A stretch of 62,753 nt of DNA, counting the filler, from Hausera hauseri (lineage: Eukaryota): the NCBI GenBank assembly GCA_046269625.1. It is 10 parts of 10 records of this genome, joined end to end, with 100 filler letters (N's around TTAATTAATTAA, not from the genome) between each part and the next. Parts side by side here need not be neighbours in the genome. Positions count along the whole stretch, not along the records: positions 15,426 to 26,248 come from JBJURY010151088.1; 9 more parts are not named here. One strand, given 5' to 3'. The position numbers were made by a program, and so were the translations under genes. Under the pieces are notes generated by a model, which was not told the origin of the DNA, did not search any database, and worked only from the letters and a program-made list of their open reading frames with translations. Position 1 is the first letter of the stretch. Every line of letters begins with the position of its first letter. Shown here piece after piece: positions 9,815 to 60,843 of this stretch.

Positions 9815-11124
9815 ATGGTGACGGTCCCCGCTGCACTGCATCCCCTTTCTCTTATTTTTGCCCTTAACAAACATGTATACACATTAAGGGTTGCTTGCAA
9901 ACATATGGCGCACATTTTTTATTCTGCATTATCTTCCTTTTTCGGCTCCTCCAACTTTTATTGCATTCATAATGGCTTTATTCTATTACATTCCGACTCT
10001 CATCTTTTGCATCCGGGAAACATTCAATGATACTCACTGTCCATTTTCGCATCCGTGGTGGATCATAGACTGACCCTTCTGCCCAAAATTTAACCAAAAC
10101 CAGATCCGGTCGTCGTCTTGCCGACCTCACACCAACTACATCTCCAAATCTACCTTGCACAGATTTTTTCTTGATAAAACCAATTCGAGTCGCATTTGGT
10201 TACAATTCCATTTGCAATGGCTTAAAGCCAATCATATCACAGACTCCTTTTTGCCCGCGAACAGCTTGCCGATACTACTTCCAGCTAACATCAAGCAGCA
10301 AATCAACAATCTTGCTGAAATACTTCTTCAAGCCCGTGTGACATGCTTTATGAATCAGTTCTGCATATCACCGACCCTTCCATTGACAGCATAATTCAAA
10401 AATACTTCAATGAGCATGCCATCGGAAATCAAAAACCATCAGACTTCCTGAAAGTGCAATCTCTCAATTGAGTTCCTTATGGGTCACTCCTTTAAACAAT
10501 GCCGATTTTCTTCGTCAGTATTTTCTTTTATCTCTGCCTATCTCCATCAGGGCGCTGCTCACTGCAGTAGATGACTCTACTGCCCTGGAAAAGCTCGCCT
10601 TATTGGCAGACAAAAGTTTTGACATTTTGCAGTCTAATAGTCCACAACCAGTAGCTGAAGCAACCGCTCACACACCTTCACCCACCGACAGCACTTCATT
10701 TTCACAACATTTAAAATTGATGCAGCAAAAGTTTGACGAGCTACAGCAGTCGAGTTTAGCCATTACTACCCAACCAATTAATCTTAATAGGCCTCAACGA
10801 AGCGAAACCAGACCTCAAAGGGAGAGAAGCACTTCCAGACACTCTGCTCGATCCATTTCACTTGACGGACGCATGACTTGTTTTTATCACACGCGATTCC
10901 GAAGGGATGCTAGGAAGTGTTTTTTGAGTTGTCGGTTCTACAGCGAACGGTACGCTATGGACAACCCCATTTGTGTCTCTCACAATAAATTTCAGTCACG
11001 GGCTAGATCATGTGTGCCTGGTTGTAAACATTATAAAAAGAATTCTAGTTTCTCTCCATCTTATTTGCCTCCTCGCACTCACCATTCCTTTTCTTTTGCC
11101 CAAAAAGTCTCAAAAAACCAATAA
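9815..11124 (+). pseudogene. gag: Gypsy Gag (CsRn1-like) with ubiquitin-like N-terminus, disrupted
   Basis: LSLIFALNKHVYTLRV...FYCIHNGFILL...(fs)LTVHFRIRGG at ~9840-10062. Then WLKANHITD, FLLSLPISIRALL, CFYH-x9-C-x3-C and CVSH-x9-C-x3-C. Homologous to ORF 1462..2733. Confidence 0.88.
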
Positions 11125-14100
11125 TGATACTAGATGCCACGGCACATTCTGGTACAGGCAATATCGTTTAATCTTCTGGCCGTTTCAACACCGCCACTGC
11201 AGTTTTTCTGCTGAAAGCTGATCTATTATTTGGAGACACAGCACATAGACTTTCTTATTGATTCAGGAGCTGACTTTTCACTTCTTCCTTTGTCTTTCGC
11301 TCCTACATCCAACATAGTTCTCTCTCCTCCACTCTTCACTGCCTGTGGTCAACCCTTGAATATTGTAAGTACCATAAAACTGTCCTTCACATTCAACAAC
11401 CTACCAGGGAAATTCTCTTGGAAATTTCATAGCCAATATCAGATCGCTCATTATAGGCTCCGATTTTCTGGCTGCATACAATTTGTTAGACGACTGTAAG
11501 TATAGACGTCTCTTGCGCAGGAAATCCGTTGAAAATACCAACAAATGTTTACCAGACAACGAGTCGTATACCTTGTCTTCCTCTTTTCATTCAAATGTCA
11601 ATTTGACATGCTGTTCATCGGTTGATAAAAACACTTAATAATTCATCAATATTTTAATCTCTTCAAGTGTGAACAAATCAATCTTGAAACAATCGTCTAA
11701 ACCGAATGTCGTTAGTGAAGTATTCAGTCATTCTACATCAATTACAGCCACTGATATAATATGACTTGGTTATTCTTATCGATGGGTTCTGATCTTAAAT
11801 CCTATATCAAAACTTCTTGTTTCTGCATTCTCAAGAAGGACGTCAATTTCAAGCCGCATTTTACAACTTATCACCACATAGTCACCGAACACCAAAGACC
11901 TATCAGACAAAAGGTAAGGTCATTGTCTCCTCGTAGACGAAAAGCCGTTGAATCAGAGTTTAATGAACTCGAAAAGGCTGGCATAATTCGAAGATCCAAA
12001 TCACCATGGGTACTTACAGACCATGCGGTGACTATCATTAGTTAAATAATCTAACAACCTTGGATGCCTACCCTCTACCTCTCATAAAGAACATCCTGCA
12101 TAGTCTTACCAACACTAACATGTACTCCACAACTGACCTGCACAAAGCATATAATCAAATTCCGGTTGCACCTGATGATATTCCAAAAATTGCTGTTATC
12201 ACTCTATTTGGCCTCTACGAATATATTTTCCTGCCATTTAGTTTACGTAGTGCTTCCCAAACTTTTTAGCGGCACATTGATACCGTACTCTCTGGTCTGG
12301 ACTTCGCTCATCCATACACTGATGACATATTAGTTGCCTCTACGTCTGCCAAACAACATCAAGAACACCTTCGCATTATTTTTCACAGACTGCATAACAA
12401 TAATTTGCAAGTCAACTTCTCCAAGTGTAATTTTTTTCAAAAACGTGTAAATTTTCTAGGTCACGTAATCACTCCTCACGGCCACTCTTCACAACCGGAT
12501 CGACTACAACAACTAAAGAACGTAACTCTACCAACGACTACTACGGACATGAGAAGCTTTTTAGGCATACTCCACTTCATCCACAAATACATATCTCATT
12601 ATTCTGAGCTCACAGCACCTTTTGCACATTTATCATCCGGAAAAAAGAGGCAGTTGATTCACTGGACTCCTGATTTAATAACTAAGTTTGATTACTTACG
12701 CGATGGCCTAAAATCCATCGAAATACTGGTCTATCCAAAGCCCAATGCAAATCTTATAGTTACAAACGATGCCTTGACCATAGCAACTGGTGCGATATTA
12801 CACCAAATATACAATGGCGTCAATGAACCATTAGAATTCTATTCTCGAAAGCTCACGCAACCCGAAAGCCGTTGTTCAACATTTGACTGTGAGTTACTCG
12901 CCATAGTTCTGGCAGTAAAACATGTCAAACATCTACTTATCTTTCGTCCATTTGTCATTCAAACTGATCACAAGCCTCTCCTGCACATCATGTTATTAAA
13001 ACAGCCATCACCGAGGCAAGAGCGACATATATCATACCTGTCTACGTTTAGCTTTGTTTTGGAATACATCTCAGGCACAGATAATCTGGTAGCAGATTTT
13101 CTATCGAGGTCTGTTGGGTCCATCACAGTTGAGCCAATTTTTTCATACGAAGTGTTAAAGGCAAATCTACCGTCTGCTGACCTCCTTAGTTCCTTCAAAT
13201 CTTTCGAGATCATCGATGGCATCGCTTATGATACGTCAAACATCGGTAATAAAAAGATCATTTTAGCACCACCTTCACAAAAGCCAGCTTTTGTTCATGC
13301 GCATTCACTCCATCATCCAGGTTTGAAAGCAACCTTTCGCCTGCGTCAACGTCATGTAGTATGGTTATCAATACGCAGAGATGTACAGGGCTAAGTTAAG
13401 GAATGTGTAGCCTGTCAAAAATACAAAATAAACAAACACCTTAAACCGCCACTGTACCATTTTCCATGTGTATCACGTTTTCATACAGTTTATCTTGATC
13501 GTGTTGGTCCTTTACCTTCAGACAACGGATATCAACGTATACTTACCATGGTGGATCGTGCTTCTCGCTGGCCTGAAGCCGTTCCTCTTCGTTCAACAAA
13601 CACTGATTCAGTTGCTGACGCCTTCATAAAAATTTGAGTCAGTCGTTTTGGTTCCCCACGTTACATAATAACGGACCAATGTCCACAATTTGAGTCGTAA
13701 CTTTTCAAATCACTTGTCAAACGCTTGGAAATATCACATTTTTATACTACACCATATCATCCTCAAGCAAATGGCCTTCTTGAAAGGTTTCATAGAACAA
13801 TGAAAGTTTCCTTAAAAATCTTGGCTGACACTCATCGTAACTGGACGTCTATTCTACCATTTATCCTACTAGGTTGGCGCAACACACCTTCTAACACTAC
13901 CGGTTGCGCTCCAACTGAAGAACTCTTTGGAACTCCAATTCGGGCCTTATTTGAGCTTTCTGATCTCGACGACAACCCTACAGACGAATACATTCGTGAG
14001 GCACAATCTCACTTCGTCGAGGTCAGCTCAGATTCATTCTGTCGCCTCTTTAACAACAAATCCTATATTCCTAAGGATTTATATTCCGCCAAGTTTGTGT

Positions 14101-14702
14101 GGTTGAAGAATCAATCGCCTTCAGGCTTTAGACCTCAATATGTTGGCTCATACAAACTGCTAAATCCTTCATCTCACACGGCAATTGTTTTACGCCAAGA
14201 TAAACCTCATAACGTCCACCTTTCAAATCTGAAGCCAGCTTTCTTCATTGATGACACTCCGAATGCCAATGCTACCAATCTTGCGCCGTTGCAGCAATCA
14301 CTGTTCGATCACACTAAATCATCATCATTTCCTCCATCCGTCTCGCCTCCCTCTCCTCCATCATGTTCACTAACTTCTTCACTTCCTTTTTTGCTTGACT
14401 CTTCTTCACTATCATCTCCGTCACAAAATATCACTCAACAGCCCATCACAAATCCATCGAGTAAGCTACGCAGAGTGATATTTAATACGTACAGCAGAGA
14501 AAAGTTCTTTGATGGCACACAACGCCTGACCCGTACTAAAACCGAATATGCACCGAATATTGTTTCTTTTTCGATTCATCGTTTTCATTCATCTCATTTC
14601 CATCATTCGTTTTCGCCTTCACCTTGTTCTTCTAAGCCACGGGGGGCGATGTGGTGCCGCGGTTGCGGTTGCAGCTTATGTCCTATCAATACCCAAGGAT
14701 GA
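11118..14702 (+). pseudogene. pol: Gypsy pol (PR-RT-RNase H-IN), disrupted
   Basis: Protease FLIDSGADFSLLP; RT DAYPLP and KAYNQIPVA; RNase H NDALTIATGAIL, ELLAIV, TDHKPL and NLVADFLSR; integrase H..H/C..C zinc motif and TTPYHPQANGLLERFHRTMK; Ser/Pro-rich tail. Confidence 0.95.
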
Positions 14703-14710: not shown

Positions 14711-16162
14711 AGCTGATCTAAATCAACCAAAACCGGCTAAACAGTTAATGAAGAAGAACCCGCACATCGCCTCAGAATTATGAATTACGTATTACAGTCA
14801 AAGAACGATTTGCTCCTACAACAAAACCACCATGTCTCGTACAACAACGTCTTCCACTACTGCGTACAAACGAGAACAATTATGTCATAGAAGACGGCAA
14901 CACCTCAAGAAATTGAAAAAATTTAAATGCCATTAGTAAACCCTGATGCTCACTCACAGGTAACAATTACAGGCAAGTCGTATAAGTCGGACAGACCGTA
15001 AACTTCATGAAATAGTACAGAACAGAATACAATGTTGAACAAGCTGTTGATTATATTGAAAGTGCAAAGTAAACACTAAAAAGCCAGTAAAATATCAGAG
15101 CACAGCAAGGAAGGTCAAAACTGCTGAAAGTGTTGTTTCTGTTTATGTTGTGCCACGCATCGTCAGTGTTTAAAAAAAGAAATGAAATTATCCTCCGGTT
15201 ATATGTTTTCTTTATTTGAAGTTTTGTCCAAGATCCATAAATAGTATTTTGTGGTGGTAAATTTTGATGAATCATCGATGTCGACACACAAATGAACGAA
15301 CAAACAACAATCCAGACAAAATTTANNNNNNNNNNNNNNNNNNNNNNNNNNNNNNNNNNNNNNNNNNNNTTAATTAATTAANNNNNNNNNNNNNNNNNNN
15401 NNNNNNNNNNNNNNNNNNNNNNNNNTTATACCATTCGAAGCGAACCGAATAATAGCTATAATCACCAGCGAGCAAACCAATGATGAAGCCATAAGGAAGG
15501 CGCATACAGAACATTTCGTTGGAAGAATAATGGGGATCCAAGAAGCTGCAATGTATTTCGAATACTTACAGACTGATGATGACAAACCGCAATACGATAG
15601 GAACTTAGTTCCCCTAAGCGAAACCCTGCCACCGGTGAAACCGAAACTACCGGTCGGAAGACAAAGAAAAATAAAGGAAATTGACCATAACGCAGACCTA
15701 GTCAGGGAATTGAGACAGTTATCAGTACCCACCTCGAGCTGAGATAATAAGGAACTAATCGAACTAATGAGAGATTTAATTAGGATAGTTAATTATACTG
15801 GACTCCAAGGCGACATATTTTCAGAGAAAGAAAGGCGGTTATATAATGTAGCTCGGACCATGAAGACTTCGCGATTTAAATTATCTAAAAGCACCCTCCA
15901 TGACGAAACAGTAATTGATAGAATTATGACAGACAATACGACGGAAGAATTAAGAAACGTTTTGATATATTTGGCAGTAAAATCTAATCCTCTCCGAGAA
16001 AATGAGTTCGACAAGGCAATCGGGTTAGCTAGGAAAGCGGCAAGAAGGGTACCTAAAGAAATAAAATGGGCTAAACTATTTAAAAAAGAGGACAATGCGA
16101 AAAGGACTAATAACTTAGAGGATATAGTACGAAATTTCTCTTCGGGAAAAGGGAACGAATCA

Positions 16163-17287
16163 AACTGGTTAATCAACCTACTAACAATAATGATGTTAGT
16201 GAAGCAGATGGAAGCAGTCACCATATATGATTGTGACAAATTCAAGGTGGGTCAGAAATACTCTTTAATGGACTTAGAAACATGTGAAGATGTGAGACCT
16301 CAGAAGCTTGAAACAACAGAAAAAAGTATATATTATATCAACAACGTGAACGAATCGCAATGGATGCGACGGAATGCATGATACGGAGATCACGCAGCGT
16401 TTTTCATTGTGGCAATATGCATGGGCATTCTTCAATAATCAAACCAAAAACACCATTAATTTCGATGAATGTGGACAGACAGCACAATGTTTCGACATAC
16501 TGGAAAATACTGGATAAGTTTACCTAATGGAGGCGCTACCACAGCCCCTAGCAAGCTAACAGGGACAAATTTAATCAAAGGATTATCAGAAAAAAAGTTC
16601 GAGGATACAGCCAACAAAGGAATTTATAGGCCCAAGGACATAAAAGCCTTTAGGGAATTCTTAGCATTTCTGCGACAGAGAACTTATGAACTAAATCGGG
16701 CTATGTCAATGGTCATGGACGAAACCCACTTTCAAGCGAAATGGGAATCATTACTCGGCGCTAATCACTATTAAAGAGTAACTTTAGAGATATTGTATAA
16801 AATTTGGGGAAGGTTTCTGATTTTCGGACAAGCCGCATCCGGAATTCTAGCTATCCACTTTTTGGTTCAGCTAGCCAAAGCAGTAATCCAAGCCATCATC
16901 AACGGATATGAAATATTCATATTAACCGGATTTTCCTGCAAAATTTTGACTGCAGTTATCACACCCTTTGAAAAAATGCTCAAGGCTTATGAAGAAAACC
17001 GATGGAAAAATGACGTACAACGTCATGTCGGATATTATAATCGTAAACGGCGAGGGCGACCGTCGATCTTCTACAGACGCAAATCTAAGAAAAAAACAAC
17101 ACAAAGAGACGATTCAGACGATAACGAGCCTAAGGGAGGAGAAGCGAATTTCAGAATAAGAATGCACAAAATTTACTCAGCAATTAACGCACCGTTGCCC
17201 ATCATGCCGCCAACAGCACCGATATATGAAGACTGTGACTGCAAATCAATCGTATCTTGTAGGTCAGAGATCTATCAAACCCATTAA
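16163..17287 (+). pseudogene. env: Chuvirus/Jingchuvirales-type class III fusion glycoprotein (env-like), internally deleted
   Basis: Internal signal peptide NWLINLLTIMMLVKQMEA, then VTIYDC...YSLMDLETC...(fs)YQQRE...ECMIRRSRSVFHCGNMHGHSS. C-terminal GIYRPKDIKAFREFLAF and WGRFLIFGQAASGILAIHFLVQLAKAVIQAIINGY membrane region. Most of the ectodomain is missing near 16485. Confidence 0.75.
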
Positions 17288-17378: not shown

Positions 17379-20300
17379 ATGTTGTACTCAAAAAGAATAT
17401 CGCGTCACATAGAATCGAAATCGACGATCTGGGAGAACCTGAAACTATGTTCAATCTCAAGTTCACTACCCCAGGAACCGCTCATTGACAGTCGCATTAT
17501 GGAGATAACGAATGACGACTTGTACCCAAACGGGAAATTAAGAAAATTAAGGAAATATATCATTTCAGCGCCAGAGATAACAATAAATGGACATAGAGTA
17601 TTTACAACAAAGCAATCAAAGGCAGCGTCAAATTGCTACGGGACAGTAGCAGAAGGGAGACCTTTCGCTAAAATAGACATCGAAGATTGGGACGTTTAAT
17701 CATTAATCGATACAGGATCAGAAAAGTAGTTTATAAAATACGAATTAGTACCAACCACACTGCGAGAATAATTATGCCCACCACTATCGTCAGATCCTGG
17801 AAGTGTAGGAGCATTTGGACAAGTATCAAAACCGAGATTTAAATAGACTCCTGCCGTTTATATGATGGGCCAAGCACTTCAACACGAATTTGCGATAATG
17901 GACCAGTTGACAGACGACGTAGTACTAGGTTGCCATATATTGAAACAAATACCAGGCATGGCAATCGATGTGCATAACGAGAAATTGATTGAGCTCGAAC
18001 CAATAAAAGGGACAAAAGCAATAAAAAAAAGGAAATCTGGCGAAGTATGGATTCCCGTAGATGAAGACATTTCGCCTAGAACTGAAATGATAATTTTCGC
18101 ACAGATTCGACAGGATGAAGATCTGCCAGTATATTTCGAACCTCAAGAGAATATTGATCCAAACCTTATGTTTAGCAATATTTTATGTAGAGTTGTGACG
18201 GGACGAATACCTATCAGATTAGTGAACAATGCACCAATTCCCGTAAAATTGCACGCTAGCACTACTTTAGGTCACACTTGTAGAGTATCGGCAGTGACAA
18301 TAGAGGAGAAATCATACAAGTGTGCGGAATTTCCACTTCATGTTGAAACCAAATTCTCTCCCAAAGTGTATTGCAAATTCTAAGACTTATTGTGTAAATT
18401 CCGTTCGATAATAGCGCAAAACGAAGAATACATAGATAGAGAAAAGGCTCTAATATTAACGATTCCATTGATGAAAAAACCCGGCTCAAATGACAAAATC
18501 GATTTAGAAGAAGAGAAAATTCCTAAGTGGTACCCGCCTCCTCACTCATTGAGACCAGAGATAACTAAAGAGGTAGAGCGAATGTTAAAGGCCGACATAA
18601 TTTGACCAAGTGATCGATCATGGTACTCACCTATAATTATGGTTAAAAAGAAAGGAACCACGATACATCGGTTTTGTATAGATTATCGCACATTAAACAC
18701 ACTGATGATGAAAGACTCGTTCCCTCTACCATCAGTAAAGAAAGCTTCAGACAAACTATCAAGAGCGAAATGGTTCACCACTCTCGACTTACAATCGTGA
18801 TATTGGCAAGTGGAAATCGAAGAAAAGGATCGATATAAGGCAGCATTTAAGACACACAATGGCGTATACGAATTTAATGTTATGCCCTTCGGCATCACCA
18901 CAGGACCTGCTATTTTTACTAGAATGATGAATAAGATGCTCATGGGATTTGATAATGCTTTCGCGTATTTGGACGATGTAATTATAGCATTGAAAACAGA
19001 AGAAGAACACTTGAAGGACACTGAGGATACACCCATACCACTAGAACAAGCAGGGTTGAAACTATATCCAAAGAAATGTAAATGGGCACAAAACGCAGTA
19101 TCGTATCCCGTTCACATAGTTGGAGAAGGAGGATCAAAACCGGACAAATCTCTACTAAATAAGATATCCGATTGCATGGAGACGCAGAACCAAAAAAAGT
19201 TAAGACATTGGTTAGGCCTATGTGGATATTATGCCACTTACTTACCAGAGAGTTTACAAATTAACTCACCACTATATCGCCTACTCAAAAAAGGAACTAA
19301 GTGGAGTTGGACGGAAGTGGAGCAATGAGCCTTTGATGAAATGAAGAAGGTTTTGACAAGTGAACCAGTTTTAAGATACCCGGATTTTAACCTGCCATTC
19401 ATCAATAAAACAGATGCAAGTAAAGAAGGCATAGGATACGAATTAGATCAGAAACGAGAAGACGAAGAATTGGAACATCCAATAGCTTATGATGGACGCT
19501 CGTTAAAAAAAGCAGAAAAAAATTATTCAGTTACCGAATTAGAAACTCTAGCCGTTAAAGAAGCACTACGACACTTTAACGTCTATGTCTACGGACAAAA
19601 GATCATAATAATGACTGAACACAAAGCAGTTACGACATTAAAAGGACGCGCTAATAACCCAATATGTAGATTAAACCGCTGCATCGAGGAAATCTCACGA
19701 TATAACATTGAATTCCAATACAAACCGGGTAATAAACACGTCGACGCCGACGCACTGTCAAGGTTAAAGACAAAAACGAGTGCAATCATCACACTAAAGA
19801 AACTACAAATCGTACAGTTGATCGAACAACAAAGAACTCTGATATCGGATAAGACAATTAGAATTACAGCAGAGTAAGCTAAAGACACGGTTATTCAGCA
19901 AATTATCGAGTTCGTACAAAACGGCAAAATGCCAAAAGGACGGCAACTGAAAAAGCATCTGCAGAAACACGGATATAAATATCGCGCATCAAACCAAGAT
20001 AACATCCTGTATTACAAAAGGGAAGGAACAAGATTAATAGTCATTCCAAAAGGATTACGCACCGAAGTACTCATGTTTGAACATGACTCGTATTTAGCTG
20101 GACACATGTCTTGGAAGAAGACATTGGAAAGAATATTAAATAAATACTATTGGTCAAGCACCCATATCGATTTAAAGAATTGGGTAGGAGCGTGCGAAGT
20201 TTGCGCGACAAAACAAAAGAAAACAAAAGGCTACGTAGCAGAATTAAAACCTATTAAAACGTACCAGATAGGCCCATGCAAGCCATGTCTTTGGATATAG

Positions 20301-21105
20301 TAGGACCCTTGCCTAAAACTCACAAAAATAACAGATATATTCTGACATGCGTGGACCGATTAACGCACTTCGTAGAACTAGTGGCACTACTAGATCAAAA
20401 GTCAAAAACTTTAGCCGACGCAGTAGTAAGAAAAATCATTTGCAGATACGGACCACCAGAACAAATTTTAACGGACAGAGGAAGGAACTTCACAAGCGAA
20501 TTATTCGAAAAAATTATCAAGATATTTGAAATTGAACGTTTAACTAATACCGCATACCATCCACAATGCAACGGAATGGGCGAACGAATGAACGCGACAG
20601 TCAAGACCAAAAGGATTGGGATGAATTCCTAGAAGGAACACAGTTCGCGATTAATACAACTCCACATCCAGCAACTGGATTTACACCGTTCTTTATGACG
20701 TATGGCCGAGAAGCAATCTTACCCACAGATCTACGTGTGACACCGTATGAAAAGAACCTCGAGGATTTAGAGCAAAACTTTGCCGAAGTTCTACAGACAA
20801 GATTACAAAAGTGTTTGGAAGTTGCGAAAACATTATCACTCGAATACCAGGAACAATTTAAAAAACAATATGATAAAAAGACTAAGCCTCATGATCTGGA
20901 AAAAGGAAATTGGATTTATATACATTATCCGGTCGCAAAAAAGGTACATCCTTAAAATTGACACGTACCGGAAGAGGACCATATGAAATCGTCCGTACCA
21001 CGCCAACTACAGTCTACGTAAATAAAAATGGTAAAGAAGTTGTATCGATTCAAACAGTAGTTAAAACGAATATAAGGCCAGCTAAACATTACAATCTAAG
21101 ATCAC
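17379..21105 (+). pseudogene. pol: Gypsy pol (PR, RT, RNase H, IN with GPY/F module), disrupted
   Basis: SLIDTGS at ~17709; FCIDYRTLN, YEFNVMPFG and AYLDDVII; TDASKEGIG, YSVTELETLAV and HVDADALSR; HDSYLAGH...CEVC; DIVGPLP, TDRGRNF and TAYHPQCNG; GRGPYEI; HYNLRSR. Confidence 0.95.
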
Positions 21106-21119
21106 GAGAAAACAAAACC

Positions 21120-22565
21120 TCGTCAATTATCACCAGACTGATATCATACGTTCAGATAATTCTAGCACTATCGCTAATCGCCTCTCATATTCCAAAAACA
21201 CAAGCTGGATGGTGGCATGGAACCGAAATGCAGAAAAATGAAATTAATAAAACGGAAAAGAAACCAACATTAGAAGAAACCCAAAAACAAAAAAATATCA
21301 CGTCATTACGATCAATCACAATTCATTATTGTTTGCCGAACTCCATATGCGTTGGATTTACGATACAGAAAATATACCACGATTCTGGAAGATTTCAAAT
21401 TGCCCTAGATGATATAATAACAAAAGAAACAGGGAATTGTGATTTCGGACCTAAAGAGCATACGCAATGTTGCAATACAAAATTCGGACATACTTATAAC
21501 CTTACTTATCTGTTGTATTCATCAAAATTATCTGAAAACTACGAAATAAAACCGCAATTTCAATTAGTTATTCCTGCTTGGAACAAGCACCATGGGATAA
21601 AACCCAACGAAATGCTCTAGTCCATCAACCCAGTAAAGCGGATGCTGGAAGAAAATATCGCCAGTATTTCAGAGAACCCCAAGAACAATTGTGTTCAAGT
21701 AAAAACAAAAGGATGATTAATTAACGGTCGAGTAACTTCAGTCCGGTTCCTGAAAGAAAACATACAAGCTCATAATCAACAATACTGCCAAATCGACTTC
21801 GAACAACCAAAAATATGTTGTAAGTTATCACAAAAATATGACTATAGAATTCAGCTAGATTTATATGAAATCAGAACCAACCAATCGAGTATTTATTTAG
21901 GAAGCTACCGACTCAGGAATCCAATCAAGTCGAATTTATTTAATATGACAACGAATACAAAAATAAAGTCTACTATTCCGGCAATTATCAAAACTATTTC
22001 AACAAATAAACCACCTCAGAAAGATCTAGAAATAATTCCGATAAAATACTGGACATAACAATGCGAAACAACTTTTATTGTAGAAAAAGCACTTAATTAC
22101 GACTTAAAAATAAGCTGCCGAACATCATATAATAATCAGAAAGTAATATTGGCGAGAGGCAAAAATCGAATCAAATGTACCTACTTGAAGCCCGAAACGG
22201 ATTATATTGTACAAGTGAAAGCAGAGAATAGACAAAGTAAAACGTTTACGGTACGAACTTTAAATGAAATTGTCTCAATGAAATCATTAACCAATGACGA
22301 AGCGGAAGACGAGGCGACAACTACTGTTAAAATAAAAAGTTTAACTGAACAGACAACCTTGTCGTTAATATCGATTTTTGGAGCATCAATGTTCACTCTC
22401 ATAATCTTAATTGCGTTTTGTCGATTGATTACCAAAAACTGCTATAATAGACGCCCTAAAATCTACGAGAGAGAATTAAGGGTAATGGTACCAAAGGATG
22501 GAATCAATGATGGAATAACCCGACAACTACAGATCAGGTTATTCCACCATCAAACAAAGAATTAA
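21120..22565 (+). pseudogene. Type I membrane protein with Cys-rich/FN3-like ectodomain, in frame with the integrase C-terminus
   Basis: One frame runs from 20910 to 22565 with three in-frame stops. Signal-like IITRLISYVQIILALSLIASHIPKTQA; two Cys-containing repeats; FN3 signature LKPETDYIVQVKAEN; TM LSLISIFGASMFTLIILIAFC. Confidence 0.65.
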
Positions 22566-22625: not shown

Positions 22626-25028
22626 ATGGTAAGTACGAGCAGCCGACCTAGGATCGACGAATTCCTGCAGAGGTACGGACCAGTTCTCATTCCAAAATCA
22701 AAGGGCATATACCGAAGGATAAATTATGCATTACGGACAGAAGTACATGTCGAATACAGGAAAGTAAATGAAATACCTAACGATCTGAAAGGTACCACTG
22801 AAGACAATCGCACGGTTTTGTTATACGCAATGAGTGATAATAATCAAGTCAAGTCATATGATCTTAAGAAGCTAATCCAAAGTAAAACGGCCAGAATAGA
22901 GGATATATTCATCCATTTAGCCGACGGAGAAATTTATTACAGAATAAAGAATCCACAATGGGACGGCAACGAAGGGCGCCAATACCGATTTAGCACGTTT
23001 AGAATAAGTGGACAAGGTTTAGAAACTATTGACTATGGATTAGAATTTCGAGTAGCAGCCATGCCTGTTAAATTGATGTTCGAAGTAACCTATAAAGAGA
23101 GCTGCAACTTAGGCTTGCCGATTCTACAGTTCGAACAAACTCCAACAGAGGACCAAAAGGATGAACATCTGCAATAATATAAGTTAGTCCAAGACGGTCA
23201 TAACGTAAGGATCCTAGCTACGAACTATGGTAGAGAAAACGATGGATATGGAGTACCGATAGAGGTATCTATTCGAGAGATGGGACCGAATTATACTCAA
23301 CCATTATAAACCCTCAAAAACATGTCCAGGATTCACATGCGGAAGTGACTGGTCTAAGAAAAGATCAAATGATAAATGGAAAAGATATTCTACAGGTCCG
23401 TTTGGAACTAGACCACTGCCTTTACGGATGTATGATAACAGGATACAATGTCAGAAGAGAAATCGGGCTATTAGGGATATCCGATGCAAATATTGCCGGA
23501 CTTAGGGAAATAGCCACTCATTCAGTAGTGCAAGAACGAATGGAGAAAACCGCGCAAGGAAGAAACCGACCAACAGCGTCAGAAACCTTCTTTAAAATAA
23601 CCGTCGAAGCAATGAGTGACAACCCAAGTAAAATTCCAAGACCTCTGACGGCTAGGCAACGTTCCCAATATTTACAAGAAATTTATATAACGTTAAAATT
23701 GGAACATGAATGGACCCCTAAAAATCCCACATAAAATTTACGTAGCTGCATAAACCATGAACGAATAGATGGTAGATATACAAGAAATATAAAACCATAT
23801 TCCCCGATTTGAACCGTTCAACCAGCAGACAAGCATAGTATCAAAATCGTAGTACCAGAACCAAAACCAGAAGGCAAAGCGGGATTACGGACAATCAAGG
23901 AGAAAGAGAGGACATTGCAAGGAACACCAAAGCATCCAGAAGAACGAAGAGAAGAAACAATAATTAAAAAGATGAAAGTGGAAAAGAAACCCCAAGCCAG
24001 GAAAACATTATCCATCTACAACTATCTATTCAAAAAGCGTAAGACATATGAAGGACAAAAGGCAGAGAACCAACAGAATCAACCAAGTACCTCTCATGAC
24101 ATAGAACCGTTAAAGAAGGGAATTAGGAGTCCCATTATAACGGAAATTAACGCCCTAATAGGAAAAGGAAATAGAGGACGCATATTTTAAAACAACCCAA
24201 GATTTTCCCAGAATGTTGGGAACTACCGAATACTATAGCAAAAAAATAATAAAGGAAGCTATGTTCTTCAATAAACTTGCCCCAGCTAGAGAGGTTTTTG
24301 AAAACACTTATGTATGGGAGAATACTAAATTTGGAACCTACCTTACGTCAATTTTTCTATCAAAAAGGACAGGGAAGATAATAGTTCCCGTGGAAGAGCA
24401 AATCCGAATATTGCTGAAGAAACAATATAAGAAATATAAAATAGAAGGAAGTATTCCTGACCTAGATAATGACCTTATAACGGATTGGACCCTGATTCAA
24501 GTAGACTGTGATCCACGCAAAAGTTCGATAAACGTCAAACAAAAGGTAATTCACGGGTAATTATATCAAGATGGAGATGGCCTTGTGTTTAAACCCATCG
24601 AACTGATCATTCAAGTTGATTTAGACAAAGATGATTGGGGCAAGGAATACAGTGAATGTCCCGTATGTCAAGCCAATTTAAGACAAGGCTACATAATTTT
24701 AGACAATAGAAATTGCCGTCATAAATACTGTCCAGATTGTCTAGACAAGTGGACACTCGACAATGGGAAAACGACATGCTCAGTATGCCGAGCTGAAGCT
24801 ACAGAATTAAATTACTACTCAGAGGGGAATTATACACGAGTTGTTAGAATTAGACCTTATCACAGCTATAATTTGGAAACGAACCCAGTAGCCAGTCGAG
24901 ACCCAAGGAATTCACCAACTGATCTGCCCGAAAGAATGAATAGGTTAAGACAACCCAGAACATTGGGCGCCACCACTTCTGACGCAATAGGCTCCTCCGA
25001 GGATGCCGCTCAGGAAGGAGAAATGTGA
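22626..25028 (+). pseudogene. Accessory ORF (fragmented) ending in a C3HC4 RING finger
   Basis: A chain of same-strand ORFs. ORFs 24213..24560 and 24585..25028 share a frame across one stop. CPVC-x15-CRHKYCPDC-x12-CSVC is a RING-HC pattern. Confidence 0.7.
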
Positions 25029-25717
25029 GAAATTACAGTCAACTAACAGAGACAACTGAAATTGTTAACATTTCCTATTACTATGAAAGTGTATATATTA
25101 TTTTAATCGAATTGTTGAAATAAAAAATGGAAAATTTTGAAATAACAAATACAGTAGTTCGAGAAATCTAGTTAATAGAGTTTTATTTGTATATAAGCCT
25201 ACAAAAGTGAATTTAAGTAAAAACCAACATTGTGCTGCAAGATCTGCTGCTATATAAGCAGATCACAAAACGATGGTAGTCAGAAGTTTGGAAACAGAAA
25301 TTTAGTGTCCGACTTAGAATCGAACAGCAAAAATTAAAGACTTATTATCTGCGTTATCATTTTGAATTGATATTGCTGAAAGTGAACGTTGTGATATTCT
25401 GTGATCAAATAAAGGTTATTTTAAAATTTGTTTATTTAAACTCCCATATAGTTTTCTCATCGTCCCTTAAGGACGATTTGTACTACACTAAGGATAAAAT
25501 CATACTTAAAATCATATAGTTAAGTTGAGAATCTATAAACTGAGACATTCATTTATTTCGCACGCAGTGCCAGCATTACATACTAAAATCTTTTAAAATT
25601 ATTAAGGCACAAGCAGATTACTTGAGAACGAGTAATCTTAACCTGCTGAAAAGCGATATAAATTGAAATTAAATATTGTTATAGTGGGAGACGATAAGGG
25701 CCACCCCAACTGTAACA
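25024..25717 (+). repeat. LTR (~694 bp) of the giant Gypsy element
   Basis: Preceded by purine tract AGGAAGGAGAAA; starts TGTGAGA and ends TGTAACA. TATATAA near 25251 and AATAAA near 25408. A PBS follows. Confidence 0.8.
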
Positions 25718-25721
25718 TACT

Positions 25722-25738
25722 TGGCGACCCTAGCAGGA
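25722..25738 (+). promoter_or_regulatory. Primer-binding site (tRNA-Arg-like)
   Basis: TGGCGACCCTAGCAGGA, 4 nt after the LTR-terminal CA. The tRNA identity is inferred. Confidence 0.65.
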
Positions 25739-26034
25739 GAGTTTGTTCCTCGCTAGACTTTACTGTTGAGAAACCAATTAACGACATACCGACGAATACC
25801 GCCATTTACATCAAGTAATTGATATAATAAGAACCGAGAATTGAAATTTGGGATTATAAGTTGATAGGGGGAATTAACTAAATTGAATTGAGAGCAAACA
25901 CTGATAGGCTCAATTTGAATCAAAACTCGTTAGTAAACGAACAAAAGGAATTTAATTGACGAGAAACACGAAATAGGCTTTATACAGAAGAAACGGCCAG
26001 TTGGAAAACCAAGAAAAATAAAAGAGGTAGACTA

Positions 26035-26248
26035 TAATGCAGATTTTATTAGGGAACTGAGGCAATTATCAGTACCCACTCCGAGCTCAGATAATGAAGA
26101 ATTTATAGAACTAATGAGAGACTTAATTAGGATAGTTAATTATACCGGACTCCAAGGCGACATACTGTTTGAAAAAAAAGACTAATATACAATGTGCTCG
26201 GACCATGAAAACTTCGCGATTTAAATTATCTAAAAGCACCCTCCCTGA
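26035..26248 (+). repeat. Diverged second copy of ~15690-15903 (internally deleted tandem element)
   Basis: agggaactgaggcaattatcagtacccac...taaaagcaccctcc aligns by eye to 15703-15900 with scattered substitutions. Confidence 0.9.
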
Positions 26249-26348: not shown

Positions 26349-27314
26349 AGTTCTATTGTCGTATTTACTTACTCGAGGTCATCAAGTGAGAGTTCTTTCA
26401 CAACTAATACGAAAATAGCTGTCAGCTGATTATATTCGCCCATTTATTCCAAAAAACACTGATAATAAATATACAGGAGCTACGGTTATTAAACCTGTTT
26501 GAGGATTCTATCCTAATCCCATCCCAACATTGGATTTATCCAGTTTGTATTCCAGTATCATAATGGCTCACAATCTCTGCTACACAGCGATGATCAATGG
26601 TGATCCTAGTAATTTAAATTTGTTCCCCGAAGATTAAGAGAAATCCTCCAAAGGCCACTATTTCGTCAAAAAAGCGGTAAAAAGAGGTTTACTTCCAGAG
26701 ATTTTGTAGCAACTAATTGATGCCAGAAAAAAAGCTAAGCGGGAATTTGCTATCGAAACCGATCCGTTTAAAAACAAGTTTTCGATGGACGTCAGTTAGC
26801 CTTGAAAATTTCCGTTTACGGGTTCACCGGTACTCAAGTTGGTCGATTACCGTGTTTAGCAATCTTATTATCAGTTACTGGTTACGGTCGAGTTACGATT
26901 AAAAAAACGAAACAGTTAGTAGAGGAAAACTTTACGAATTCTAAGGTATATGCACAGGATGCAAAGGTTATCTACGGGGACACCGATTCTCTGATGTGCA
27001 ATTTTGGTGTTGAGATAGCAGAGGCGGCTATGAAACTCAGTCGAGAGGTAGACGATTTTATTACGGGTTATTTCATTGCACCAATCAAATTGGAATTCGA
27101 AAAAGTCTATTATCCGTATTTGTTGATTAGCAAAAAGCGTTACACCGGAATGTATCACACAAAAACAGATAAATTTGATAAAATGGACTGTAAAGGTCTG
27201 GAAATTTTCAAGGAATTAACGAAAACTGGTAACGAATATAACAACAAAGAAGCTCACACAAAACTGACATTAAAATTACGCAAACGAGATTTTGGTAGTG
27301 CACCACAATTGGGT
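26349..27314 (+). pseudogene. POLD1: DNA polymerase delta catalytic subunit fragment, intronless and disrupted
   Basis: [92 protein letters not shown] and RKRDFGSAPQLG. Confidence 0.95.
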
Positions 27315-27578
27315 GGAATAACTTCTGTCATAATATTACCTGGGGAATTGTTGTCTCAAGCAGCACCGTGCTTGGAGCAAAAAACCTATCCAACCAAAAT
27401 AATTAGTTCATATAGAGGAACACTCTATGACGCGTTGGAATTTGTGAAAACTAATTGCGGTGTGGAAATCAATCCGAATAATCACGGCGAATTATTGAAA
27501 ATTGTCAAAAGCTGTCTTGGTGCAAAATTCGTCAGTAAATAGTCCGAAAGGGCCTGTAAAATTGCACTAGATGCAGTT
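27315..27578 (+). pseudogene. CCT3: T-complex protein 1 gamma fragment fused in frame to the POLD1 fragment
   Basis: GITSVIILPGELLSQAAPCLEQKTYPTKIISSYR...LLKIVKSCLGAKFVSK*SERACKIALDAV matches CCT3 GTTSVIILAGEML...HPTVVISAYR...ACNIALDAV. Confidence 0.85.
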
Positions 27579-27974: not shown

Positions 27975-29283
27975 CGACACACATTTTTCTCTATTTTTCT
28001 TTTCTTTCAAAATAAACATACACACACCGCACATACGCTAAGGCAACAGCAGCATATCTGTTTGTAGATTTGGCTCATCGCATTAACTTAAAAGGATACA
28101 CACTAAGCATAAACGGATACCATCTTCACTATTCCGATCTAATATCATCCTTTTTATCCTCATATTCATCGCTAATAATTACCTTATATCCTCGCCCATT
28201 CGGTGGTTCCGACATCAAATCTATATTAAACAATCCCCAGGAACTCACCGATATTCACACCATACATGTTCCTCTAAAACAGTTTTCTTTAGTTTTACCT
28301 GCAGCATCCTATTCGGTCAATTTCCCTAGTGTCGACTATTTTACAGATAAACAACATTCCAGTCGTACATGGCTAGAATTTTGTGCACAGTGGCTAAAAT
28401 CGAATAAGATCACTGACCCTTTCTTCAAAGACAATAGCCTATTAATACTTACCAGCCAGCCTTAAGTCGCAACTCCCAAATCTTTCCGATATTTTTCAGA
28501 CGATAGACCCATACGAAACACTATTCAACGATGTCCTTAAACTCACCGAGCCTTCTCTGGATAACATTATCCAGAAATATTTCAATGAAAACACAATAGG
28601 CACTCTAAAGCCCTCCGAATTTTTGCAAACATCTTGGACTCATTTAAGCAAGTTGGGAGTGAATCAAATCAACAATGCCAACTTATTGCTCAGATATTTC
28701 CTCCAATCATTACCGAAAGAAATACGCGCTTTACTAACAGTAGTTGAAGATACCGCTACGTTAGAAAAGTTAATACAACTGGCTGATAAAAGCTACAAAA
28801 TACTAAATACACACCATACTCCTATTGTCGCAGCCACATTACAACCGCTTATGACACCACCCAATGCTGAAATCTTAGCGCTGAATAATTAAATGAACGC
28901 TCTTCGGGCTGAAAACACGGCAATACACCAAGCCATTTCTGCTCTAACTTCTAAACTAGACAATTTATCCATGCCACGTCGAGATCGATTTACACCTAAT
29001 CATAGCCGCGCCTCATCGCACAATTCTAGATCCGCAGGTCCCTTACTCGACCTATGGTGTGCTATTATCACACTAAATTCAAGAACCAATCCAGCAAATG
29101 TTGCTTGGGGTGCAAATTCTGTACACCAGCCTTTCAAAAATATGACACTTTTTGCATTTACCATAATAGGTTCAGCAATAAAGCCCAAAACTGCATCAAC
29201 GGTTGCACTTTCATTAACCGATCTACTTCACCACGATCTACTCCTTTCAGCAACATAAATCCTGTGCCTCCAAAAACTTATAA
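27975..29283 (+). pseudogene. gag: Gypsy Gag (CsRn1-like) with ubiquitin-like N-terminus, disrupted
   Basis: HIFLYFSFLSK*TYTHRTY...AYLFVDLAHRINLKGYTLSINGYHL...IITLYPRPFGG. Then WLKSNKITDPFFK, YFLQSLPKEIRALL, CYYH-x9-C-x3-C and CIYH-x9-C-x3-C. Confidence 0.88.
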
Positions 29284-30430
29284 AGCCGCAAGATGTTTCG
29301 GCACATACTGGCACAGTCAAACGTTTCCCATCTAATAACCGTACCTATGCCGTTTTTACACTAAAAGCTTCGTTAACCTCCGAAACCAATCATTCAACTA
29401 ATTTCCTAATTGACTCTGGAGCAGCTGTTTCCTTATTACCACAATCCATCAAAACACTATCTATCGCACCGTCTAACACCAAACTGTACACAGCAAATGG
29501 CCCAGCTTAACGCATTTTCGGCAAATCCAAAGTTTCATTCACGTTACCACCATTCTCCGACATTTTCAATTGGACATTCATCGTTGCCGACACAATCGCC
29601 AATACTTTGATCTGATTTCTTATCTTCCTACAACCTCCTTGTTGATTGTAGACAACGTCGGATCATCAAGAGTAGTTCAACAAAACGTACCTTTACGAAT
29701 AACCAACAAAAACGCAACCTATCTCGCCTATAAAATCGATATTAAAAGAACCATCAGTCAACAAAAATAATAACGTCATTAATACCAATATAAATAATCC
29801 AACATTTTTGCTGCAGTCCGGTAATAGAAGAACAAAAAGCGTAGACAAGGACGATTTAGGCAATTCGATTTCTAGCGTTTCATACACTACAACAACAGCC
29901 TTTACTACGCTTAGCCAAGAAATGCAACAATATCTAACCAAATTTTGTTCCCATACAATTAAAAAAGACTTAACATATCGACCGGCTAACACGACGCTTC
30001 GTCATATCACAGAAAATGTTAGACCCGTTAGGCAGAAACTCCGCCTACTTTCAACATGCCGTCGACAGGCAGTACAAGCGGTATTCTCTGCACTCGAGCA
30101 AGCTAGCATCATAAAACGCTCTAAATCACCATGGGCATCACCACTCCACGTCGTCCCAAAGAAAGATGGCACATTCCGTCCATGCGGTGATTATCGACAA
30201 CTTAATAATGTAACAACCATGGATGCTTATTCTCTATCGTTGATTAAGGATATATTGCATTCTTTACGCAAGATTACGATTTATTCAAACATAGATCTCG
30301 AAAAAGCCTACCACCAAATACCGGTAGCATCAGAAGACATCCCAAAAACGGCAATTATAACACCTTTTGGTCTTTTCGAATACGCATTCATGCCGTTCGG
30401 TTTAAAGAACGCAGCACAAACTTTCCAACG
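29277..30430 (+). pseudogene. pol: Gypsy pol, protease plus RT N-half; truncated by contig end
   Basis: YAVFTLKA...FLIDSGAAVSLLP; SPWASPLHVVPKKDGTFRPCGDYRQLN; MPFGLKNAAQTFQ. Confidence 0.95.
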
Positions 30431-31509: not shown

Positions 31510-32454
31510 CAGGGCTTTGCAGGTAAATCCGGAAAAAGTTTATGAGTTAAATTTTGTGCTTTACTGATTGAATTTATGTCAAATATTTTTCGTGTTTAAC
31601 CATATATCTTTCTACTTTCAGGAGCTTCATTGCATTCTTCAATTGGTTCACGCGATTTCATGGAACAGGTGCATCGATTCGCTAATGTTATTTTAGCCTG
31701 CTTCGGCCACTAGGCTGCAGAGATCGTCAGACTGACGAAAGCTTCAAAAGTCGTTGTATTTGTAGACGAGAAGAAATTTATTGTCGACGCAGAGATGAAC
31801 TGCCAAAACTCACGCGTCATCGCAATTGACCCTTCTGAGGTGTCTCCTGTGTTCAAAATTAAGAATCCTGCCAGTATGATGGTCGTCGGCGCCGTGGCGA
31901 GTGATGAGAGCATGATGCCACCCAATTTCATTGAGGCTGGCTTGAAGATAAACACGGTGGAGTATATCTCGGTCATAGAGATAATTCTCCTTCCCTGGAA
32001 GGAGAAGAAGTTTGGACTCGTCAACGTCGTGCTTGTTCAGGACTGTGCGCCCTGCCATGGGTCCAAGATGACGCAAGCCTTCCTGGTCGAGAAAGTTCCC
32101 TTCGTCGTGAAGTCAAGCATCTGGCCCTCCAACTCTCCGGACCTGAATGTTCTTCACTATTTTATGTGGGGCGTCGTTCAATCGAAGGTAAGCGTATGTT
32201 CTAAGGCCAGTGTCGCCACTCTCAAGAGCTCCGTCAAGCGGGAATTCAGGAAGATCGACAAAGACGATTTGGTGGGCTCGCGCGTCAGAATCGAGTCCGT
32301 AATGATGGCCAATGGCGGCCTCATTGAGTAACTTTACTCATATCTGACCAATAAATACAGACGTAAATATCTATGTTCATATCTGCATTATTACGATATT
32401 TATGGTCATTTCGTAATTTCAAGTAAAAATTCCGGTTTTATCTGCAAAGCAGTG
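31510..32454 (+). mobile_element. Tc1/mariner-superfamily DD37D (maT) transposon, internally deleted
   Basis: Imperfect 25-bp TIRs (cagggctttgcaggtaaatccggaa / ttccggttttatctgcaaagcagtg) with TA on both sides. Transposase motifs VFVDEKKF, VQDCAPCH and WPSNSPDLNVLHY; 37 residues separate the second D from the third position, now H. The N-terminal HTH is absent. Confidence 0.9.
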
Positions 32455-33260: not shown

Positions 33261-33974
33261 TGCCCACATTTACCCTATCGATAATTTGGACAAAAATAAA
33301 GAAACATTTTCTTGTTTACCATAATAAAATCAAAATCTCGTGAATTCAGCCAATTTCGAACGTTTAATATTTCACGTCATTTTTTCTCTTGGTAACCCAA
33401 CTGTGCCTAATTCTGATATGTAATTTTCTCATCATTGTGAAATGGTTTTCAATCGTATGCAGCTTTGTTATTATATGATACGGTTCAGAATTTGTTGATA
33501 TTGTACAGTTTAAATACAACACGCGAATTTCAACTCACTCTTTATTGATATTGGATTTAACGTCGCAATCATTTTATTTTCTGTCGAGTTCTGGCTATCA
33601 ATGGATAACCGTACAATAAATGACCAAATTATAAATCTAAACCGCGGAAATAATACTGGTGTCAGAAGCCCACATCTGTACACAGTCGCTGTACAACGGG
33701 CAGAAGTCCAATATTTTTTAATGGTCACTGATCCAGCAGGATCAACCGTTTTCCATCAACCAGTTAACAAACGAGAGACTGGTTGCCTCATAATCGAAGG
33801 ACAACAGTTGGAATTTTACATCCCATATCTACATATCGGCGAAATCTAGGAATTATTTTATTTCTCCATCAACGACGCAGTCGACACAACAGATACTGTC
33901 AGTGCTGCTCCCGTCCAGCCAAATAAAATGCCAAAACCAACGATTGCTCAAGCAATTCTCATCCCTCTCACTCA

Positions 33975-34713
33975 CCAGAATATAATTGTCGGGATATTGA
34001 AGGATCTAATACACACACTCTTCTGAAATCGCCATGTGATTTGCTTAAAGCACTTTGTAATCTCACCCAAGAAGGGATTGTCGAACAGTTTACTACCTAT
34101 GCCCAGAGTTTACCAGATCGTCATTCGCAAAATCCACAAGTACATTGGAAAGAAAATGACTGTGCACTGCTCTTCATTACTTCCATTGCATCACGTGACA
34201 GTACCGAAAGATACGGCATTACAAATACGACCTTCGATGACATTGCTGCGCTCTATAAGAGTCACGTGTTGCCGGAATTATCTGGTAAAATCGGCGATAA
34301 TGCAGTCGTTAAAGCCAACTGTATCAAGTACCTTATGGCATTCCGTAATATCATTTCCCACGACGAACGGAGATCATCGATAAATTTGCTATCACAATTT
34401 GCCTTTCATCAATCTCACGTCGTCCACACGCATACAGCTGCTGCCGTTAATAAATTATTGATGTTTCGTTATCCGTCGTCGCCCAATGCCATCAGTACTG
34501 CGGCAGATGTTAACGAAACGATGCTCTTTCGGTTGTGCGATGCATTGCAGATCGAAGGATCAGAAGAGAATGATTATACTATGCAGGCTATTATGTGTTG
34601 TTTGACTTTGTTGAAAACTAGTCAGCAGTTCGTGTCGAAATATCTGCCCGACAGATGTTCTCTGTTGAAGATCTTAGTAAAATCGAAATGTTAGAACGTT
34701 CAAATCCTGCAAC
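33975..34713 (+). pseudogene. CSE1L: Exportin-2 / CSE1 internal fragment, intronless
   Basis: EYNCRDIEGSNTHT...CDLLKALC, NPQVHWKENDCALLFITSIASR...YGIT, HVLPEL, VVKANCIKYLMAFRN, VVHTHTAAAVNKL and SEENDYTMQAIM follow CSE1L order. No N-terminal half upstream. Confidence 0.88.
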
Positions 34714-34813: not shown

Positions 34814-35085
34814 TGTCCGTGTATTAGTCCACAGTGAAAAATGCTACGAGATCGTCTCAGCATACATTCCATTCCATCTAATGATATCAACTCTTGTTGT
34901 TGGTACAGAAAATAACTTTTCTCTCTCCTTTCTAACTTGTGCGGCCTGGAATCTTCGCATACTTTTAAATCCATTAGAGAATACTTCTGTCCTAGTTTAA
35001 ACTTATCGCAATCGTAGACAGTAACAGCACATATTTGCTTTAATAACATCATGAAGGTAAGTAAGCTGATTAACCAATTTGGTTT
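34814..35085 (-). pseudogene. env: Class III fusion glycoprotein N-terminus (second copy), cut by contig end
   Basis: NWLISLLTFMMLLKQICA-VTVYDCDKFKLGQKYSLMDLKVC...YQQQE...ECMLRRSRSIFHCGLIHG. Confidence 0.75.

Positions 35086-60806: not shown

Positions 60807-60843
<37 letters not shown>

Follow-up and report, generated by a model that had tools for sequence, protein, structure and literature searches.

Background

Errantiviruses with the gene order GAG-ENV-POL and an ENV of the HSV/gB type have been described from Platyhelminthes, Nematoda and Bryozoa (Chary and Hayashi, eLife 2026, PMC13524379). In the portion of that paper considered here, nine flatworm elements with a gB-type ENV are listed, the entry mechanism of gB-type errantiviruses is stated as unknown, herpes gB is noted to need partner glycoproteins, and most gB-type errantiviruses are described without such a partner. 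The accessory domains of the planarian gypsy element Burro/GYPSM1 include BIR, BCL2 and MATH, according to the part of its description used here (PMC6431247). Atlas virus has a two-part envelope, composed of a variable receptor-binding GN and the fusogen GC, in the portion of the source considered here (PMC9094657).

Here we report on a stretch of 62,753 nucleotides from Hausera hauseri (the window), in which a decayed Ty3/gypsy element with a gB/chuvirus-type fusogen upstream of pol carries another surface-protein gene in frame behind the GPY tail of its integrase. The window consists of contigs strung together with 100-base N spacers, so that neighbourhood across the spacers is meaningless and each contig has to be read by itself.

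Organization of the element

The contig at 15426-26248 contains most of one decayed retroelement, the surface-protein gene included. The order on the contig is the end of a long ORF, a signal-like stretch, the fusogen, PR, RT, RNase H, IN, the surface protein, ORF A, a RING ORF, a polypurine tract (PPT), an LTR-like segment and a PBS-like motif (Table 1). This order, together with a minus-strand relative that has a gag-like stretch and a long ORF before the same fusogen, gives the layout gag-X-env-pol-surface protein-A-B-LTR. The gag expected upstream of env lies beyond the contig; in the minus-strand relative, 38850-39606 is gag-like by eye and has no Pfam hit. The PR-RT-RH-IN order of pol, with gypsy-type domains and a GPY tail, assigns the element to Ty3/gypsy, the GPY/F module being a gypsy trait, and the PF24664 fusogen upstream of pol is a trait that it shares with the GAG-ENV-POL gB-type errantiviruses. 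A belpaovirus of the Gag-Pol-GN-GC type was considered and rejected: the RT motif is YLDD, not YVDN, and the downstream protein matches FN3 folds, not a phlebovirus-like env.

Table 1. Features of the element and of its surface-protein gene (positions in the window)
Feature	Position	Strand	Basis
Long ORF, 3' end, before the fusogen; closes in the fusogen's signal-peptide-like stretch (about 16163-16222)	15428..16222	+	No Pfam hit
Monjiviricetes/gB-type (class III) fusion glycoprotein, broken, internally deleted	16223..17287	+	PF24664, E 5.1e-20
Retroviral-type aspartyl protease, broken	17652..17951	+	PF00077, E 0.0017, just below cut-off
Reverse transcriptase and RNase H, broken	18600..19703	+	PF00078, E 5.7e-20; PF17919, E 3.2e-30
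Integrase zinc domain and core, spread over three frames in the window copy	20043..20955	+	PF17921, E 5.6e-16; PF00665, E 3.9e-15
Integrase C-terminal GPY tail, in frame with the surface protein, no intervening stop	20956..21119	+	Sequence reading
Signal-peptide-like segment, predicted internal signal, predicted cleavage after 21206	21120..21206	+	Hydropathy, conservation
Predicted FN3-fold domain 1, C-x29-C-x9-CC	21300..21584	+	Alignment A1; P0002 model; FN3 matches Z 6.8-6.9 at model 71-163
Predicted FN3-fold domain 2, duplicate of domain 1, C-x31-C-x9-CC	21636..21929	+	Repeat test z 8.1; fibronectin Z 9.1
Thr/Ser-rich linker	21930..22030	+	S/T content of relatives; model pLDDT under 30
Membrane-proximal FN3-like domain 3	22031..22268	+	PF00041, E 0.0016, below cut-off; seven strands in model, pLDDT about 50
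Predicted transmembrane helix	22365..22421	+	KD 2.51
Cytoplasmic tail, juxtamembrane Cys and basic patch	22422..22565	+	Sequence, alignment with relatives
Accessory ORF A, broken	22626..24001	+	No Pfam hit under E 0.02
Accessory ORF B, broken, C-terminal RING finger 24654-24791	24102..25028	+	PF13639, E 1.3e-07
Polypurine tract 25012-25023; LTR-like TG...CA 25024-25717; PBS-like motif from 25722	25012..25730	+	Read from sequence

The fusogen match to PF24664 extends over 16333-17014, upstream of the protease, with further runs at E 3.1e-12 and 9.7e-05. This copy covers profile positions 61-96 and then 433-609 of 653, about 340 positions being missing, and the window's fusogen is without about half of its ectodomain. 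It is preceded by a signal-like stretch inside a longer ORF, the same entry mode as that of the downstream surface protein. Two separate surface-protein genes are present in one element, as the preliminary description had claimed: the fusogen before pol and a predicted type I membrane protein behind the integrase. The long ORF that ends in front of the fusogen shares 56% amino-acid identity over 309 residues with the minus-strand relative at 34909-35835. That relative, which occupies 34816-39608 on the minus strand, is diverged; it has a gag-like start and an Asn/Arg/Asp-rich repeat, then a coiled-coil-like ORF of about 3 kb with no Pfam hit at the cut-off, and then the same fusogen N-terminus.

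At the other end of the element, the LTR is only putative, because no second copy of it is present in the window, the contig being without the element's 5' end. The stop of ORF B falls within the first bases of the LTR-like segment. A second element head, 83% identical to 15643-15903, follows the LTR-like segment and the PBS-like motif at 25990-26248; it is a tandem, internally shortened copy that lacks several kilobases of gag and long ORF. The window copy of the element is dead.

Other elements and fragments in the window

Smaller gypsy elements of another clade, with no obvious env, are located at 10414-14700, 28446-30430 and 40-2739; their RT is about 27% identical to that of the large element. 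One open frame at 26772-27542, adjoining the gypsy element at 28450-30430, combines part of a B-family DNA polymerase (PF00136, E 2.5e-50) with part of a TCP-1 chaperonin (PF00118, E 6.4e-09). An intron-free, partly deleted fragment of Cse1 (exportin-2) at 33927-34694 (PF08506, E 6.4e-31) is probably a retrocopy. A remnant of a Tc1/mariner-type DDE transposase (PF13358, E 3.3e-04) is found at 31714-32331, and a long simple-sequence repeat at 55600-62000.

An open frame continues behind the integrase

The frame 20895-22562 contains three stops in 556 codons (21618, 21714 and 22056), whereas the other two plus-strand frames over the same interval contain 47 and 34, and 2000 base shuffles of the frame gave a mean of 40.7 stops and a minimum of 23. 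The earlier count of about 550 codons with only three stops is therefore borne out. The frame runs from the GPY motif (20976-20984) through HYNLRSR, a hydrophobic stretch, the Cys modules, LKPETDYIVQVKAEN from 22185 and the TM helix to a basic tail, and its first in-frame ATG in the window is reached only at 21228, past the predicted cleavage site. The pol frame had been described as running on into the surface protein; this is true of the GPY tail and not of the integrase core, which lies in other frames in the window copy and is set apart from the tail by frame changes near 20258, 20550-20630 and 20940. Loose ends of contigs from a sequencing run, X1, flank 20937-20944 on both sides (13, 20 and 7 contigs), so the change near 20940 appears to be a lesion of the window copy.

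The base composition of the surface gene (A 0.41, T 0.25) is close to that of pol (0.39 and 0.22, respectively), whereas the host-like Cse1 piece has 0.29 of each. With this A-rich strand bias common to gene and element, the surface gene looks long resident.

The gene is present throughout the family

The gene is not confined to the window copy. In run X1, 26,909 contigs align to the 10.8-kb contig and cover 30 of its 30 bins, and 2,065 contigs in four identity bands (143, 397, 748 and 777) lie at 20860-21760; X1 is one run, possibly close to the window's source, and its contig depth does not equal copy number. At 21618 and 21714, where the window copy has stops, 96% and 99% of the X1 depth reads differently (51 and 45 contigs). 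At the position of the third stop, 22056, a residue is found in both of the database relatives described below. At least two X1 records span the region from the GPY tail to the signal peptide. None of the 13 majority differences of X1 at 20954-21186, read by eye, creates a stop or an ATG; they come from a listing of shares of at least 60%, which a minority start codon could escape.

Third codon positions make up nine of the 16 sites that vary among X1 contigs, as against two of the 18 sites at which nearly all contigs differ from the window (Fisher p 0.009; 34 of 39 listed rows, five rows upstream of the frame having been dropped). Within the surface gene alone the contrast is borderline (5/11 versus 1/14, p 0.056). 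The X1 cover, the stops read otherwise, the codon-position bias and the element-like base composition together reject a one-off insertion, the possibility that the search for other family copies had been meant to address. The surface-protein gene is real and family-wide.

Database relatives

A phmmer search of 1.84 billion representative proteins returned two matches, P0002 (intact, 479 amino acids, 33% identity, E 6e-59) and P0003 (189 amino acids, 45% identity, E 5.5e-33). Both are single-member ENA clusters and may come from retroelements. P0002 keeps the signal, the eight module Cys, the linker, the third domain, the TM helix and the tail. In P0002 a Met stands directly before a 26-residue signal peptide, and the upstream stretch is unrelated to that of the window; with such a start in an intact relative, it may be that not all of these proteins are fused to Pol. 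Neither of the two phmmer matches among the 1.84 billion proteins is a fusion of Pol length.

Word-based protein searches found no further relatives of the surface ORF among longer proteins (0 of 227 candidates) or of the ORF before the fusogen (0 of 638), and none among proteins of 30-102 amino acids when alignment A1 was used (0 of 247). Scans for the locus were likewise negative in metagenome contigs (0 of 236 and 0 of 364) and in viral contigs (0 of 89). Searches of PDB sequences gave nothing better than E 1.1 (contactin-1 FN3). The homologues among host surface proteins for which the preliminary description had suggested looking were thus not found in the protein and PDB sequence searches.

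Domains of the surface protein

A signal-peptide-like stretch had been reported after GPY and HYNLRSR, and hydropathy agrees: the hydrophobic stretch peaks at KD 2.02 (21126-21182) and ends in a T-Q-A cleavage-like site at 21206. This segment is by far the best conserved part of the protein with respect to P0002, 18 of its 22 residues being identical compared with 131 of 429 in the remainder (p 1e-6), and the tail is second (11 of 26). An identity of 82% at 21141-21206, against 31% elsewhere, is unusual for a signal peptide. On this pattern of conservation, the segment may have a second role, as a membrane anchor retained on the integrase or as an RNA signal.

The Thr-rich linker, the TM helix and the tail of the earlier account are all present. 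The linker has 14 Ser or Thr per 30 residues in P0002 and 15 in P0003, and the KD values of the TM helix in these relatives are 2.26 and 2.95, respectively. A YxxPhi motif terminates the tails of the relatives about 14 codons before the stop of the window copy, which has no Tyr there; the X1 contigs and both database relatives stop about 14 codons earlier than the window copy. No C-terminal PDZ motif was seen, P0002 and P0003 both ending in R-I-T. Hydropathy and conservation in the three sequences fit a type I topology, with a signal, one TM helix and a basic stop-transfer segment.

The two Cys modules are both present as they had been quoted. Their likeness to each other is not significant on the window sequence alone, since 321 of 2000 shuffles reached it (40 of 500 in a three-way motif test). 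When P0002 is added, no shuffle of 200 reached it (z 8.1; hhalign E 8e-4), and domain 2 is a duplicate of domain 1. Comparison by profiles of domain 3 with domain 1 (84 of 200 shuffles) and with domain 2 (40 of 200; hhalign E 0.011) gave no significant likeness.

Predicted fold

The FN3 signature reported earlier, LKPETDYIVQVKAEN, is in place; it is weak in Pfam (E 0.0016-0.005, under the curated cut-off). A fold predicted from the window frame as a single sequence was uninformative (pLDDT 32.8). The AlphaFold2 model of its relative P0002, built from three sequences, is weak, with a mean pLDDT of 47.1 and a pTM of 0.27, but has three seven-stranded domains. Foldseek with this model gave 155 matches at E 0.001 or less, the best being tandem-FN3 proteins over 210-350 columns (fibronectin, E 6.8e-06; gp130 D4-6; IL-2Rg; IL-4R). 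In VIA-align, domain 2 matched fibronectin best (Z 9.1, rmsd 2.1, 85 aligned), domain 1 matched FN3 domains at Z about 6.9 (rmsd 2.4-2.8, 75-84 aligned), and the whole P0002 model had only one match at Z 8 or more. In this low-confidence model, domains 1 and 2 are thus seven-stranded beta-sandwiches like those of solved FN3 structures; because of these matches, both Cys modules are probably FN3 domains themselves. With a signal segment and a TM helix predicted from hydropathy and beta-sandwiches from the model, the refutation that the preliminary description had tied to the lack of such predictions did not come about. Domain 3 was barely covered by VIA-align.

The FN3 fold is too common to show function. 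The matches in BFVD were FN3 proteins of a generic kind, cyprinid herpesvirus ORF129A among them, and a specific relative from a virus was not found there. No match of 0.9 or more to P0002 was found in the ESM Atlas; its feature neighbours, all under 0.9 and to be taken as leads only, are FN3 membrane proteins and include FNDC5, IL-11Ra and a glycoprotein cluster of cytomegalovirus US8. Class I cytokine receptors are characterized by WSxWS, C-x-W, a conserved four-Cys pattern and Box1. WSxWS, C-x-W and a Box1-like proline motif are absent from P0001 and P0002, and the Cys pattern is a different one in both domains (Table 1); identity as a class I cytokine receptor is therefore ruled out.

Possible roles of the surface protein

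The reading that we favour, tentatively and with a little less than even confidence, is that the gene is encoded by the element in many copies and specifies a predicted triple-FN3 type I glycoprotein, which signal peptidase likely releases from the end of Pol and which is likely the attachment partner of the fusogen. We infer translation as one chain with Pol. Pol would be synthesized in the cytosol, and the stretch that follows the GPY tail would serve as an internal signal; signal peptidase would release the ectodomain into the ER, and the TM helix would stop transfer. The long Thr-rich linker would keep two disulfide-locked FN3 domains off the membrane, and the tyrosine motif of the tail could sort the surface protein to budding sites or cell contacts. 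The tip domains would bind a host surface molecule, bringing the membranes near enough for the fusogen to act. The proposed topology is self-consistent, and its pieces have precedents in the in-frame env of Burro, between gag and pol (PMC6431247), and in the attachment-plus-fusion pair with which the Gag-Pol-Env polyprotein of Atlas virus ends (PMC9094657). A more elaborate form of this reading, possible if somewhat unlikely, is a two-component entry machine of mixed origin, in which a class III fusogen from negative-strand RNA viruses stands before pol and the integrase is followed by a triple-FN3 adhesin of cellular derivation. Signal peptidase would cut both from one polyprotein, with Pol between two membrane anchors, and the FN3 protein would be the receptor-binding partner, its swappable tip setting which cells are entered.

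Among the points against an attachment role are the description of most gB-type errantiviruses without a partner of this kind (PMC13524379) and the company that the gene keeps: accessory neighbours such as the RING ORF here, and the apoptosis and ubiquitin domains of Burro in the part of its description considered (PMC6431247), favour host manipulation over entry. They would suit a captured ectodomain resembling that of a cytokine or growth-factor receptor, which as a decoy or dominant-negative receptor would bend host defence or germline signalling and would be one of several accessory genes. The disulfide-bonded FN3 domains in tandem and the short tail agree with such a protein, as do the many cytokine receptors among the top fold matches (IL-2Rg, IL-4R, IL-9R, IFNGR, IL-20R2) and the ESM Atlas neighbours mentioned above, and a YxxPhi motif in the tail would suit ligand uptake. 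We nevertheless regard it as rather unlikely, since the receptor motifs are missing, fibronectin, L1CAM, LAR and ROBO match equally well, the protein and PDB searches gave no host homologue, and a location within Pol would suit a component of the particle better than an effector at the level of the cell. The pattern of conservation raises another role, in the producer cell, where the protein would act as a tether between a membrane domain and Pol or the budding site, or would mask the entry receptor against re-infection by related elements. The signal segment is far more conserved than the ectodomain and the tail comes next, and one 1521-base X1 contig agrees with the GPY-signal stretch over about 180 bases but not beyond, as if ectodomains varied behind a fixed anchor. 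A tether, however, needs no three folded domains with conserved disulfides, and attachment proteins also have fast-changing tips, GN being more variable than GC in the portion of the Atlas virus paper considered (PMC9094657), so that this role seems improbable to us.

A separate matter, compatible with any function, is whether the protein is expressed apart from Pol, from its own start codon or from a spliced subgenomic RNA, the sharing of the GPY frame then being incidental. The env of Drosophila gypsy is expressed from a spliced subgenomic RNA. We consider such expression unlikely here, and keep it at that level because of the Met that opens P0002 and an acceptor-like AG, with 10 of 15 upstream positions pyrimidines, that ends at 21136, at the start of the signal segment; the protein searches, too, yielded no long Pol fusion. 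On the other hand, the interval from GPY to the cleavage site contains neither a stop nor an in-frame ATG, whether in the window or in the majority differences of X1. P0002 was called as a gene on a contig of 4,939 bases, and its start may have been chosen by the gene caller; three other nearby AG sites score almost as well as that at 21136. The remaining view, that of a host fragment captured once and neutral, or of a frame open by chance, could appeal to a broken window copy and to only two database relatives, each in a cluster of its own. It is very improbable and largely refuted by the family-wide cover, the copy-private stops, the codon-position bias, the element-like base composition and an intact relative at 33% identity.

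The protein is a concrete candidate for the partner in the unexplained entry of gB-type elements, and P0002, a natural intact relative, allows tests of binding and localisation. Should the protein instead be a decoy, it would be a receptor mimic borne by a retrotransposon; receptor mimicry is a tactic known mainly from large DNA viruses. Annotation that ends at the integrase overlooks the surface-protein gene.

Comparison with known systems

The element resembles the gB-type errantiviruses in its Ty3/gypsy pol, its gB/chuvirus-type fusogen upstream of pol and its presence in many copies, and differs from them, as described in the portion considered, in its second surface protein, only chromodomains being given there C-terminal to the integrase (PMC13524379). 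The words 'fibronectin', 'immunoglobulin', 'GPY' and 'lectin' have no occurrence in the main text of that paper, and six relevant terms are absent from the portion of PMC6338049 covered. No FN3 membrane protein of a retrotransposon was found in the literature, with Repbase reports, subscription journals and the GitHub data of PMC13524379 outside the scope. A gB-type fusogen upstream of pol has thus already been published for flatworms, and the downstream FN3 protein is apparently unpublished.

With Burro/GYPSM1 the element shares an env upstream of pol, placed in Burro in frame between gag and pol in a long polyprotein, and accessory ORFs with host-manipulating domains, including RING-type motifs. 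The env of Burro is reported, unlike that of the element here, as gypsy-Env/mononegavirus-like, and no FN3 or second membrane protein is described in the part of the source considered (PMC6431247). The sORF2/FAST-like proteins of the MDG1 group are likewise accessory TM proteins, sometimes encoded downstream of pol and tied to cell-to-cell spread; in the portion of the source covered, they are fusogens of about 70 amino acids with a 30-residue ectodomain, in elements without env (PMC11952523). The surface protein here has about 450 amino acids and three domains and is encoded beside an env. As in gp130, IL-2Rg, IFNGR, fibronectin and L1CAM, a tandem seven-stranded FN3 fold and a type I topology are predicted. 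Unlike FN3 cytokine receptors and adhesion molecules, the protein shows 6-14% identity in the structural matches, another Cys pattern and no WSxWS or Box1, and no homologue was found at the level of sequence.

In Atlas virus and the nematode belpaoviruses, surface proteins are also fused in frame behind Pol, in one polyprotein. Atlas virus differs in being a BEL/Pao element, both parts of whose envelope are derived from phleboviruses and adjacent, with a class II fusogen, as far as the portion considered here describes it (PMC9094657). The element here belongs to Ty3/gypsy, its two surface-protein genes flank pol, and the second of them has a predicted cellular FN3 fold.
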